A stretch of 64,000 nt of DNA from an uncultured Eubacteriales bacterium (lineage in GTDB: Bacteria; Bacillota; Clostridia; Lachnospirales; Lachnospiraceae), in assembly GCA_949286525.1 (NCBI GenBank), contig CASECT010000046.1, positions 1,255 to 65,254 of the forward strand. Reading direction: 5' to 3'. The translations under genes and the position numbers were made by a program. The notes beneath the pieces are model-generated. The model searched no databases. It was not told where the DNA came from and was given only the letters and a program-made list of their open reading frames with translations. The first letter of the stretch is position 1, and the number at the start of each line of letters is the position of its first letter. This document shows, one piece after another, positions 8,308 through 12,399 of this stretch.

Positions 8308-8495
8308 TTACCGCCGCTCCTCCATAATCAGGTAGAAGGGATAAGACATTGGATACAGAAACCAGTATTTTGTGTTGAGCATCAGCACGGAAGGGACAAT
8401 GGAGGCCAGCGCCGCGCCCACGGAAAATACGGGCGCCACAATACAGACCGCGAGCATCCAGAAGAAGGTCAGCATGGGAACCGATGTCAGATTAT
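8308..8495 (-). pseudogene. Fragment of an ABC-transporter permease resembling lantibiotic-immunity permeases
   Basis: Manual translation (not in ORF track): LTSVPMLTFFWMLAVCIVAPVFSVGAALASIVPSVLMLNTKYWFLYPMSYPFYLIMEERR*; hydrophobic helices plus W.LYP.SYP motif. Confidence 0.5.
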
Positions 8496-8550
8496 CAGCT
8501 GATCGCCAATTCCGTAGGTATTGGCTTTTCTGTGCTGGTCATCAACGGCC

Positions 8551-9058
8551 ATGGGCCACGCCGGTCAGCTGGAAAACGACGCCTCTCTTCCTGTATGTGC
8601 GCAAAAAAAAAGCTGCCGCCATTCTGCGGCAGAGTTCCCGGATTAAAAATCTGATCAACGATCTGAATCTTGCGTCCAAACTGGAATACAATATGCAGCC
8701 CCTCAAAAAAAGGGAAGAAAACGCCGTCGCCCTGGTCCGGCAGGCAGCCGTCAACTGTATCAACCACAACGAGGACGGATGCCGCATTTTCGTCTCCGTC
8801 CACCGCACATCCCTGGAATGCAGAATCTGTATCGCCGACGACGGCCGCGGCGTCTGTGAGGAAACTCTGGAAAAGATCCGCTTCACGCCCCACTATATGA
8901 TGTGCGATACCAACACCACCCAACAGCGGCATGGCCTGGGCCTTCTGATTGTCAAGCAGATCGCGGCCTCCCACAACGGATCTCTCTCCGTGGGCCACAG
9001 CATCTATGGAGGTTTTCAGGCAATTTTGACACTCCCACTTTCCCGAACGGATCCCTGA
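8551..9058 (+). pseudogene. Sensor histidine kinase remnant (partial HisKA + HATPase_c), frameshifted and internally deleted
   Basis: MGHAGQLEND in one frame joins AAAILRQSSRIKNLINDLNLASKLEY in another across A9 at 8603-8611; N, DDGRG and HGLGL boxes present; no H-box or TM sensor. Confidence 0.75.
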
Positions 9059-9076: not shown

Positions 9077-10525
9077 CTATCTGATGTTCTGTTCATCATC
9101 TTCTCTGCTCTTCGCATCCCGGTACCGGTATCCGAGCACGAACTGATTCTTACCTTTTTTCTTCGCTTCATAGAGAAGATGATCCGCGTTCCTGTACAGT
9201 TCATCAATATTCATTCCGGCTTCCAGCGGAATCACGCCGATACTGCAAGTCACGGACTGCTCCTCAATCTGTATGGTTTCGATTCCAGTCCTCAGGCGGT
9301 TCATATATGTCTTTACCTGATCTCTTGTAAGAGGGACTCGAATCAGCGCCACAAACTCATCGCCGCCCAGCCGGCCGAGAATGCCCGCTTCGCCTATTGT
9401 CCCGCGCAAGCGCTCCGCCACTTCTCTCAGCACCCTGTCCCCTTCTGGGTGCCCGAATCTGTCGTTGATCTCCTTGAAATAGTCCACATCCAGTATCATA
9501 AAGCAGCCCGCCTTTTCCAACTGGTCAAATTTCATCTCACGCAGAATTTTCTGGCCGATTTGAAAAAACTGTTGTCTGCCCATCAGGCCGGTCAATCCAT
9601 CCAGTCTTGCCTCATAGTAACGGTAATTGAAATTTTTCTGATACATTAAAATAAAGATAATGACGATCAGGGCTAATGAGATCATACCAAACAGGAATTG
9701 AATCTGTAAATGCATAACATCGTAGGAAAGCCTTCCGGTAACACTGATTCCATAGCTGGAAAAAACAATTCCCATTCGATTGGTAAAATACAACGCGACG
9801 CTGACAGAGGCCAGCAGAACCAGAACCAGCATGGCAGTCATTCCCACTCTGCTTTTCGGAGAGATTTCATTTACCTGATCCACATTCTCAATACGTTTCA
9901 GAAATCCCCTCAGAAGACCAGATTGCGCAAACAGGTAACAGGATACAACAATCACATTGACAACCGCGATAAAGGGAATAAAATCCCATCTGCGGATATC
10001 ATCCAATGTATTCGCCACCGTAAATCCCGCTTCAGGAAACAGCAGCTGCATAAAACTGTATACAAGCACAGTGTGTATTGTTCTGCCCACAGAGGAGACC
10101 AGAATGATCCCTGCAAGAGGATACCGTCCGTTTCTGGCAGCCCGATATAAAAATCCTATGACAAAACCGAAAAGCGCTCTGGATCCGACGCTTAAAACAA
10201 TGCTTTCAAAAGGTTTTCCACTCATTGCAGGAGAGAAGATCGCATCTCCTGCCGCCACATAAAAGGCTGAGGCCTTCCACATGGAGGCGATTCCAAACAC
10301 AGCCCCCACGATCGTGGAATTCTTTGGGCCCAGAACACATCCTGCCACCATAACCGGAATATAGACAAAAGCAAGAGATATCGGCTCAATATGCACATAT
10401 CCCATAAAAGAAAAAGACATAAAAAACTCCACCGCAATCAGTATCCAAAGCAGATAATGATTATTCTCGATCCCCCTGTTCCTCTTCTTCCGGAAAAGCG
10501 CCATTGCCATCCCCCTTACCTTCAT
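9077..10525 (-). CDS. Membrane diguanylate cyclase with ECF S-component-like N-terminal domain
   Basis: C-terminal DGLTGL, LDVDYFKEINDRFGHPEGD, RLGGDEF; N-terminal GYVHIEPISLAFVYIPVMVAGCVLGPKNSTIVGAVFG resembles PanT-type S-components; exact start uncertain. Confidence 0.85.
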   Translation of the reverse strand: MKVRGMAMALFRKKRNRGIENNHYLLWILIAVEFFMSFSFMGYVHIEPISLAFVYIPVMVAGCVLGPKNSTIVGAVFGIASMWKASAFYVAAGDAIFSPAMSGKPFESIVLSVGSRALFGFVIGFLYRAARNGRYPLAGIILVSSVGRTIHTVLVYSFMQLLFPEAGFTVANTLDDIRRWDFIPFIAVVNVIVVSCYLFAQSGLLRGFLKRIENVDQVNEISPKSRVGMTAMLVLVLLASVSVALYFTNRMGIVFSSYGISVTGRLSYDVMHLQIQFLFGMISLALIVIIFILMYQKNFNYRYYEARLDGLTGLMGRQQFFQIGQKILREMKFDQLEKAGCFMILDVDYFKEINDRFGHPEGDRVLREVAERLRGTIGEAGILGRLGGDEFVALIRVPLTRDQVKTYMNRLRTGIETIQIEEQSVTCSIGVIPLEAGMNIDELYRNADHLLYEAKKKGKNQFVLGYRYRDAKSREDDEQNIR

Positions 10526-10599
10526 TCTCCATAGGATAAGTATACCATAGTACTATCAAATTGGCACTCTCTATTTTTCTGTGACATAACCCCTGACAT

Positions 10600-10642
10600 A
10601 AAAACGCACTGGCAACAAGTTACCTTGCCTGTTGCCAGTGCG
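10600..10642 (-). terminator. Intrinsic terminator after the GGGtGRT gene
   Basis: CGCACTGGCAACA stem followed by T-tract on minus strand. Confidence 0.75.
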
Positions 10643-10676: not shown

Positions 10677-11687
10677 TCAAAACTTGCCAGCCTTTGCAGC
10701 TTCCTCTACGGAAACGGCTACGGCTACGGTCATACCTACCATCGGGTTATTTCCCGCGCCGATCAGGCCCATCATCTCAACGTGAGCCGGAACAGAGGAA
10801 GATCCCGCGAACTGTGCGTCGGAGTGCATTCTTCCCATGGTGTCGGTCATACCGTAGGAAGCCGGACCTGCGGCCATGTTATCGGGATGCAGCGTACGTC
10901 CGGTACCGCCGCCGGAAGCAACAGAGAAGTACTTCTTGCCCTGCTCGATACACTCTTTCTTGTATGTACCTGCAACCGGATGCTGGAAACGTGTCGGGTT
11001 GGTGGAGTTACCGGTAATGGAAACGCCTACGTTCTCATAGTGCATGATGGCAACGCCCTCCTGCACATCATCCGCTCCATAGCACTTTACAGTGGAGCGA
11101 AGTCCGGTGGAGTAAGGTTTCTCGTATACAATGTTCAGTTCGTTCTTCTTGTAGTCAAACTTGGTCTCCACATAGGTAAATCCGTTGATACGGGAGATGA
11201 TCTGGGCAGCGTCCTTTCCAAGACCATTCAGGATAACACGCAGCGGTTTCTGGCGAACCTTGTTCGCCTTCTCAGCGATACCGATGGCGCCCTCAGCGGC
11301 AGCGAAGGACTCATGACCTGCCAGGAAACAGAAGCACTCGGTCTCCTCCTCCAGAAGCATCTTGCCCAGGTTTCCATGTCCCAGACCTACTTTTCTGTGG
11401 TCCGCAACAGAACCCGGAATACAGAAGGACTGAAGTCCCTCTCCGATGGCAGCCGCAGCGTCCGCAGCTCTGCGGCAGTCCTTCTTGATGGCGATTGCAG
11501 CGCCTACGATATATGCCCAGCATGCATTCTCAAAGCAGATGGGCTGAATACCCTTGATCTGATTGTAAACGTCCAGACCGGCATCCTTTGTAATCTTCTC
11601 CGCCTCCTCGATGGAACTGATGCCATACTTGTTCAGAGCGGCGTTGATCTGGTCAATTCTTCTTTCATATGATTCAAATAAAGCCAT
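10677..11687 (-). CDS. GGGtGRT-family protein, function unknown
   Basis: Signature SVASGGGTGRTLHPDNM; FLAGHESFAAAEG. Confidence 0.9.
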   Translation of the reverse strand: MALFESYERRIDQINAALNKYGISSIEEAEKITKDAGLDVYNQIKGIQPICFENACWAYIVGAAIAIKKDCRRAADAAAAIGEGLQSFCIPGSVADHRKVGLGHGNLGKMLLEEETECFCFLAGHESFAAAEGAIGIAEKANKVRQKPLRVILNGLGKDAAQIISRINGFTYVETKFDYKKNELNIVYEKPYSTGLRSTVKCYGADDVQEGVAIMHYENVGVSITGNSTNPTRFQHPVAGTYKKECIEQGKKYFSVASGGGTGRTLHPDNMAAGPASYGMTDTMGRMHSDAQFAGSSSVPAHVEMMGLIGAGNNPMVGMTVAVAVSVEEAAKAGKF

Positions 11688-11706
11688 TTCTTTCGTCTCC
11701 TTTCAA

Positions 11707-12399
11707 TTACTCTACTCTCGGGTCGATAATCTTAACGGCGTCAGCCACACGGCCGTACTCGCCTTTTGCCTTTTCCCATGCAGTGTTGGGATCATCGCCC
11801 TTCTTGATGAAGTCTGTCATCTTTCCGAGGGAAACGAACTGATAACCGATCACTTCGTTGTCTGCGTCCAGCGCAATGCCGGTAACATAGCCTTCCGCCA
11901 TCTCCAGATAGCGAACGCCCTTTGCCTTGGTAGCGTACATGGTTCCCACCTGAGAACGGAGGCCCTTGCCCAGGTCTTCCAGGCCGGCGCCTACTGCCAG
12001 ACCGTCATCAGAGAACGCGCTCTGGGTACGGCCGTAAACGATCTGCAGGAACAGCTCTCTCATGGCTGTGTTGATGGCGTCGCATACCAGGTCCGTGTTC
12101 AGAGCCTCCAGAATGGTCTTACCCTGAAGAATCTCAGCCGCCATAGCTGCGGAATGGGTCATACCGGAGCAGCCGATGGTCTCTACCAGCGCTTCCTCGA
12201 TCACGCCGTTTTTTACATTCAGAGTCAGCTTGCAGGCACCCTGCTGGGGAGCACACCAGCCAACACCGTGGGTAAAGCCGGAGATATCTTCAATTTTTTT
12301 GGAATGCACCCATTTTCCTTCTTCCGGAATGGGAGCCGGTTCATGTTTTGCGCCCTTGGCAACCGGACACATGTTTTCAACTTCCTTTGTGTAGATCAT
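11707..12399 (-). CDS. NifU/IscU-N-like Fe-S scaffold-related protein, partner of GGGtGRT
   Basis: GWCAPQQGACKLTL..ETIGCSGMTHSA..GKTILEA..LVCDA cysteine pattern. Confidence 0.8.
   Translation of the reverse strand: MIYTKEVENMCPVAKGAKHEPAPIPEEGKWVHSKKIEDISGFTHGVGWCAPQQGACKLTLNVKNGVIEEALVETIGCSGMTHSAAMAAEILQGKTILEALNTDLVCDAINTAMRELFLQIVYGRTQSAFSDDGLAVGAGLEDLGKGLRSQVGTMYATKAKGVRYLEMAEGYVTGIALDADNEVIGYQFVSLGKMTDFIKKGDDPNTAWEKAKGEYGRVADAVKIIDPRVE

Follow-up and report, generated by a model that had tools for sequence, protein, structure and literature searches.

A PanT-type S-component joined to two helices and a GGDEF domain: a probable receptor-cyclase with pantothenate-like candidate ligands in gut Clostridia

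We find that a gene in the window, the whole 64,000-nucleotide stretch of DNA analysed here, encodes a protein in which a PanT-type S-component is followed by two further membrane helices and a GGDEF domain. Comparative sequence analysis points to a real and conserved sensor module that derives from PanT-type S-components and is apparently undescribed. Judged from sequence and model, the protein is quite probably a receptor-cyclase; granted this, we lean towards a ligand in the pantothenate/pantetheine group, and pantothenate is the best single guess at about even chances, although the pocket is altered (Asn131 replaced by His, NGxxE lost). The full reading, in which the protein would be a membrane receptor for a small extracellular metabolite, pantothenate or a related precursor of CoA such as pantetheine being the most likely, is in our judgement equally apt to be right or wrong.

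The 482-residue open reading frame that prompted the analysis is real, and the GYVHIEP... stretch quoted from it in the preliminary description sits at residues 42-82. The likelier start is Met8 rather than the start of the 482-residue frame, since Met8 is the invariant first column of the 31-member alignment and a purine-rich stretch precedes it. The terminator-like hairpin of the upstream GGGtGRT gene suggests that the cyclase gene is transcribed on its own; promoter-type matches occur near chance level (5 found, 2.9 expected). An Rfam scan around the gene gave no match, and a riboswitch search in 20 related loci found none. Coordinates of the gene and its features are collected in Table 1.

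Table 1. Features of the fusion gene and its upstream region (positions in the window).
Feature	Position	Strand	Basis or remark
S-component/2TM/GGDEF protein gene	9077..10525	-	482 aa; 475 aa from the likelier start, 10504
Sigma-70-like promoter match with TG extension	10539..10567	-	9/12 positions
15-bp terminator-like hairpin of upstream GGGtGRT gene	10605..10642	-	strong; cyclase gene lies behind it
PanT-type S-component domain, aa 22-203, six helices, without extra N-terminal membrane helix	9917..10462	-	PF12822; 4RFS_S
Helix 1: W27-x-x-x-A31 where docking AxxxA expected, and Glu33	10427..10447	-	Glu33 in 49/50 fusion rows
Arg116, aligned to L. brevis PanT Arg95	10178..10180	-	49/50 fusions, 53/53 stand-alone
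His151, where PanT has Asn131; common to nearest stand-alone relatives	10073..10075	-	alignment
Two further membrane helices, aa 224-297, short outer loop, Gln276 (73/74)	9635..9856	-	model, alignment
Signalling helix, helix 8 into DxLT motif	9602..9634	-	Q276-D309 spacing 33 aa in 72/74 cyclases
GGDEF domain, aa 307-461	9143..9607	-	Pfam E 2.7e-33
GGDEF motif, aa 387-391	9353-9367	-	sequence
GEAG at I-site (RxxD) position, aa 378-381	9383-9394	-	sequence; five residues before motif

The first ~200 residues had been described as closely resembling PanT-type S-components, and both sequence and structural comparison bear this out. The Pfam ECF S-component family PF12822 matches residues 28-188 (E 1.1e-6; 29.3 bits, slightly short of the curated cut-off of 30.7) and is matched by 56 of 64 relatives at E<=0.001, many of them above the cut-off. 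A phmmer search with residues 1-210 returned a sole significant PDB chain, 4RFS_S (E 4e-7), identified as PanT from the title of its entry, and a nine-sequence profile matched 4RFS_S and, weakly, 6ZG3_C. We built an AlphaFold model on a 31-sequence alignment, with a mean pLDDT of 81.8; modelled from a single sequence, the S-domain reached only 42. Residues 15-203 of this model superpose on PanT 4RFS_S with Z 16.5 (rmsd 3.3, 174 aligned residues) and on the second PanT, 6ZG3_H, with Z 15.9, against 12.9, 12.3 and 12.1 for the S-components 4HUQ_S, 4HZU_S and 5D0Y_A, which makes PanT the closest of those tried. Foldseek with the full model returned GGDEF structures alone, and a search of the ESM Atlas gave no usable match.

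An N-terminal match to MASE or 5TMR-LYT sensors had been named as evidence that would count against this assignment. At E<=1, Pfam detected neither 5TMR-LYT (PF07694) nor MASE in the 482-residue protein and nothing notable besides GGDEF and PF12822; the 64 relatives scanned contain no PF07694, and no MASE at E<=0.001, and a genome-wide search with PF07694 does not match this gene. The H0 membrane helix is likewise absent, residues 8-22 being polar and basic and the first hydrophobic segment being H1, and the NxR motif was not found in loop 1. The lack of a PF07694 match thus stands, but the opposition of 5TMR-LYT to the S-component fold does not hold as framed, since 5TMR-LYT receptors themselves have that fold (PMC11109136). 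Similarly, it is correct that no ecfA/A'/T genes were seen nearby, in that no EcfT (PF02361) is encoded on the contig, but this says little about function: the genome carries ECF modules and a stand-alone PanT-like gene elsewhere, with three EcfT matches on other contigs (C28, C81 and C156), and group II S-components share unlinked ECF modules (PMC7755397).

After the S-domain, the model contains two long helices, residues 224-257 and 265-308, the second of which runs straight into the GGDEF domain. We compared this output region across 74 cyclase members (30 close, 44 distant), leaving out the irregular P0133, P0140 and P0236. In the two members that depart from the 33-residue spacing between Gln276 and the Asp of DxLT, it amounts to 34 and 54 residues, the latter being 33 plus three heptads; such a fixed register fits signal transfer along the helix. 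The GGDEF motif is intact in 71 of the 74, and D346, D348, K351, N354, D355, D389 and E390 are present in all of them. The window protein itself retains the GGDEF motif, DxLT and the residues to which we assign metal- and GTP-binding roles, features that 71-74 of the 74 relatives share, so that the proposed order of two more helices and an intact GGDEF domain is upheld.

The reported replacement of the RxxD inhibitory site by GEAG is confirmed. The accompanying proposal that product feedback is missing holds for the primary RxxD site of this protein and fails as a family trait, as 7 of the 74 relatives keep RxxD. RxxD is also not required for membership among diguanylate cyclases, because DgcW is a diguanylate cyclase without it (PMC5422440). 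Elsewhere in the genome, which is 86% complete, we detected one EAL phosphodiesterase domain and a few other GGDEF matches, all partial or weak; PilZ and HD-GYP-type domains were not found there, and the c-di-GMP-I riboswitch gave no match, in a search that was also blank in every control genome. Some fusion genes in other loci adjoin other membrane GGDEF or signalling genes (L217 1564-4089, L219 335-4252, L264 311-2814).

The S-fold and its two additional helices form a module of ~285 residues, which is found at the head of GGDEF cyclases and of hybrid histidine kinases. A search with residues 15-300 returned 266 proteins, and an exhaustive search with residues 16-300 returned 625 representatives at 50% identity (E<=0.001), including fragments and stand-alone S-components. 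Domain scanning of 64 of the best 150 relatives, selected by length, revealed GGDEF outputs in 47 and HisKA-type kinases in 13, 12 of these with a receiver domain, while four consist of the S-domain only. A quick tree built from 50 module sequences requires at least five switches of output type, several of the nodes concerned being weak. The occurrence of the same membrane module in front of two kinds of output is the strongest sign that it acts as a sensor. In one further locus (L098/L265, genome G323) a frame of 1079 codons places a PAS domain and a histidine kinase after the module.

The module is conserved but sparsely distributed. Among 30 close relatives, conservation is 0.86 over residues 24-104 versus 0.70 over the GGDEF domain. 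Within the window's family, 10 of 401 genomes carry the full module, one copy being broken; it occurs in 15 of 399 genomes of the class, spread over nine family codes, and in none of 400 other genomes drawn across the phylum. Named relatives, whose annotations say no more than diguanylate cyclase or ECF S component, come from Candidatus Mediterraneibacter, Candidatus Onthocola and an Oscillospiraceae MAG, all of which we take to be Clostridia, and several metagenome contigs with relatives are labelled human gut. A profile search of the genome contigs with the full-length alignment found generic GGDEF genes alone. The G+C content of the fusion gene is 46.4%, compared with 52.9% for the window and 52-55% for the neighbouring genes; together with the patchy range, this may indicate horizontal transfer.

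In a sister lineage (L092 in G062, a genome of the same genus, 236-1552; P0009-P0121) the helix 7-8 hairpin is removed by an in-frame deletion of 49 residues, which lies between two ATGCTG repeats. The deletion would leave one helix and a GGDEF domain on the wrong side of the membrane. The variant accounts for 86 of the 120 close matches listed, the G062 copy additionally has a stop codon in loop 1, and the gene appears to be decaying in this lineage. What looked like a second lineage with a 49-residue deletion (423-residue members, P0068 cluster) was rejected as an unrelated protein filed in that cluster.

Mapping of residues onto L. brevis PanT through the 4RFS alignment, with counts over 50 fusion and 53 stand-alone rows, reveals what the fusion has kept and what it has changed. 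PanT residues W64, R95 and N131, cited as needed for pantothenate binding on the basis of mutagenesis (PMC7755397), correspond to F77, R116 and H151. Phe77 is invariant in both sets (50/50 and 53/53). Position 151 is occupied by His in 44 of 50 fusions and by either His or Tyr in 49 of them; it is also His in 7/7 of the stand-alone proteins that we call His-type; Asn occupies it in 44 of the 46 other stand-alone proteins. The AxxxA motif of helix 1, which is needed for docking on EcfT and is absent from 5TMR kinases (PMC11109136), is found in a single fusion out of 50 versus 36/53 stand-alone proteins. If Gly and Ser are allowed (small-x3-small), these counts become 13/50 and 52/53. The first motif position is a large hydrophobic residue in 28/50 fusions, Trp in the window protein, versus none of the 53 stand-alone proteins, and the second Ala is retained in 35/50. 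Glu33, near-invariant in the fusions, occurs in 2/7 His-type stand-alone proteins, and the helix-6 motif NGxxE is absent from all 50 fusions and present in all 53 stand-alone proteins as well as in both solved PanTs. Taken together, the counts for AxxxA, Arg116, position 151, Glu33 and NGxxE suggest a transport face that is eroded and a pocket that is part kept and part rebuilt.

Gene context supplies a clue to the ligand through the stand-alone relatives. In 40 of the 51 stand-alone loci, coaX, coaBC or a gene for an S58 peptidase (PF03576) lies within ~1.5 kb. The peptidase is similar to ThnT (E 2.5e-43), termed a pantetheine hydrolase (PMC13725253), and has better PDB matches among nylon hydrolases and an aminopeptidase; its substrate here may be of the pantetheine type. 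L274, the stand-alone gene nearest the fusions, lies directly behind coaX (type III pantothenate kinase), three of six His-type stand-alone genes, all in one genus, lie beside an S58 peptidase gene, and the His-type gene L275 directly precedes such a gene near ECF ATPases. These neighbours of His-type genes make pantothenate or pantetheine the probable cargo of the ancestor, in spite of a His at position 151. The fusion genes themselves have no CoA-pathway or S58 neighbours in 88 loci of 6.9 kb on average, grouped into 43 clusters at 85% identity, and none in 13 additional loci, and their neighbourhoods are not conserved, with no neighbour family in more than 6 of the 43 clusters. Loss of panC is not enriched among carriers (panC in 1/10, versus 46/151 family genomes; p 0.28). 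Pairs of a PanT-like gene with an S58 (ThnT/DmpA-like) peptidase gene occur at L171 5787-7349, L173 324-2089 and L275 2213-3775 and again at L103, L105, L106, L108, L109 and L119, and the pairing suggests a pantetheine salvage unit.

Profile comparison places the fusion closest to the His-type proteins. Median scores on the 50 fusion domains are 112 bits for the His-type stand-alone PanT-like profile, 83 and 76 for two other PanT-like groups, 6 for RibU-like and 4 for 5TMR-LYT, the last profile having been built from four sequences only; with that profile, hhalign gives a weak match (probability 87%, E 4.5e-6). Stand-alone rows for the mixture-model trees were chosen because they resemble either the fusion or the His-type proteins. 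In these trees a single branch (100/99) sets the fusions apart from the other rows. Fusions and His-type stand-alone proteins split from the Asn-type at 98/93 with 49 rows and at 99/92 with 48 rows (three long branches dropped, two rows added), and in the 48-row tree L274 joins all fusions at 98/94. Rooting with 5TMR-LYT as outgroup was abandoned: a clade of fusions and 5TMR-LYT was not rejected by the AU test (p-AU 0.73), the tree constrained to it was 19.7 lnL higher than the free quick search, and the trees do not fix the direction of descent. From the similarity, the graded stand-alone series and a distribution that is narrow and patchy for the fusion but broad for PanT, we infer that the fusion descends from a PanT transporter.

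The preliminary description proposed that a transporter binding unit is reused as a receptor, and this is supported by the occurrence of the same module on histidine kinases, the loss of the docking motif and the fixed linker length. As a possible mechanism, the ligand would enter a pocket that is open to the outside and bounded by helices 4-6 and by loops 1 and 3, and its binding would close the outer loops. With the domain no longer docking on EcfT and helix 6 tied to further structure, toppling could not be completed, and helices 7-8, which probably make up the core of a dimer, would instead receive the motion through membrane contacts and the cytoplasmic linker. Helix 8, in fixed register into DxLT, would then bring two GGDEF domains together or apart and thereby switch c-di-GMP synthesis.

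Among other explanations, a receptor-cyclase whose pocket has changed specificity and that senses another small acid or metabolite is rather unlikely. The universal loss of NGxxE, the absence of CoA genes near the fusions and a set of newly conserved residues, namely Glu33 (49/50), Trp83 (40), Lys84 (43) and Asp94 (48), joined in the subfamily of the window protein by Tyr55 and Arg148, all fit a new ligand. They have to be set against the retention of Arg116 and the fact that stand-alone relatives encoded beside coaX or S58 peptidase genes already have His151, Asp94 and the loop-3 motif. We regard as improbable that the membrane part is an anchor or partner-binding scaffold, with a GGDEF domain that is constitutive or acts without making c-di-GMP. 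GdpS is a precedent for an S-fold-GGDEF protein with intact motifs and no cyclase activity (PMC11962490), no c-di-GMP effector was found in the 86%-complete genome, and copies are decayed in the sister lineage. A mere scaffold accords poorly with an outer pocket region more conserved than the catalytic domain, with the exchange of the module between cyclases and kinases, with the fixed linker register and with the EAL domain in the genome.

Somewhat more doubtful again is that the S-domain still docks on a shared ECF module, the cyclase or kinase reporting transport flux or ECF occupancy rather than free ligand. ECF modules are indeed present in the genome, and the second Ala and the small-x3-small pattern persist in part of the fusions (35/50 and 13/50), but the bulky first position, Trp in this protein and never large and hydrophobic in the stand-alone set, argues against docking. 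With two more helices and a cytoplasmic enzyme attached to helix 6, toppling would presumably also be impeded, as has been argued for 5TMR kinases (PMC11109136). That the protein is a divergent 5TMR-LYT cyclase of the DgcK type, and hence of a known kind, was already disfavoured and seems very improbable. The fold is the same (PMC11109136), the weak hhalign match exists and the AU test allows a shared clade; against these stand the lack of PF07694 in the protein and 64 relatives, of the H0 membrane helix and of the NxR motif, the far higher scores of PanT-like profiles, and the two extra C-terminal helices.

The preferred reading, a pantothenate-type receptor derived from PanT, can be set beside three known systems. 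The fusion resembles PanT (4RFS, 6ZG3), the pantothenate S-component of group II ECF transporters, in the fold of residues 15-203, in sequence, in the pocket Arg and in the aromatic position. It differs in the absence of AxxxA and NGxxE, in His for Asn131, in a conserved Glu in helix 1 and in its lack of CoA-gene context; moreover, the PanT chain ends after helix 6, whereas the fusion continues into two helices and a signalling domain. With 5TMR-LYT (PF07694; the BtsS/YpdA kinases, B. subtilis DgcK and S. aureus GdpS) it shares an S-fold input for kinase or GGDEF output and the replacement of AxxxA by bulky residues (PMC11109136, PMC5422440). Within that group, DgcK is a cyclase (PMC5422440), GdpS has a DgcK-like build with no cyclase activity detected (PMC11962490), and GGDEF fusions of PF07694 have been catalogued (PMC11109136). 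The H0 helix and NxR motif belong to 5TMR-LYT and are absent from the PanT-derived fusion, which has two additional helices beyond H6 and whose sequence clearly resembles that of a single transporter family, PanT. For 5TMR-LYT, no sequence similarity resolves the origin, and Partipilo and Slotboom treat S-component transporters and 5TMR receptors as related while leaving the order of origin open (PMC11109136). A third parallel is offered by Sd-Amt1 (Amt-HAMP-cyclase) and Ks-Amt5 (Amt-kinase), transporter-derived ammonium receptors (PMC11152129), in which a transporter module likewise serves as the sensor, of a diguanylate cyclase in the one and of a histidine kinase in the other. Their fold and ligand are different, and the Amt proteins are trimeric, have HAMP and are shown by experiment, whereas the PanT fusion is known from sequence and model.

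The remark in the preliminary description that no characterised example was known, though one might exist, therefore needs dividing: an S-fold joined to GGDEF has a precedent in DgcK, and a transporter-derived cyclase in Sd-Amt1, while the PanT-derived lineage appears to be undescribed. A literature search, with most subscription journals outside its coverage, found no description of a PanT-derived fusion family, the available part of PMC11109136 makes no mention of PF12822 proteins fused to signalling domains, and the S-component/GGDEF domain pair is already visible in precomputed Pfam annotation. What would be new is thus the PanT-derived lineage, S-fold receptors and transporter-derived cyclases being already in print. 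We tentatively propose, with chances a little short of even, an undescribed family of vitamin B5 (pantothenate/pantetheine) receptors in gut Clostridia. On this view a His-type PanT would have given up the face that docks on the motor, acquired two helices and then been passed back and forth between diguanylate cyclases and hybrid histidine kinases; this would be a second traceable transition from S-fold transporter to receptor, independent of 5TMR-LYT. The putative receptor is still ~30% identical to a specific transporter subfamily, and what it has lost and gained can be named position by position; swapping a few of these positions could therefore put the transition from transporter to sensor to the test. 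In addition, a membrane cyclase and a group of kinases now have a small set of candidate ligands, unlike most sensors of this kind, and, if the proposal is true, a precursor of CoA is perceived directly at the surface of some gut anaerobes.

The surroundings of the gene differ between related genomes. In the window, a lone HATPase_c fragment of a histidine kinase (8372-9058, plus strand) and the cyclase gene converge; in G062 an exonuclease III gene comes directly after the cyclase gene, and ~0.8 kb differs from the window genome. Upstream of the cyclase gene, the region 10677-12399 on the minus strand encodes the GGGtGRT protein (PF14057) and a partner that we take to be IscU-like. The GGGtGRT neighbour also lies beside the fusion gene in two other loci, L097 and L191.
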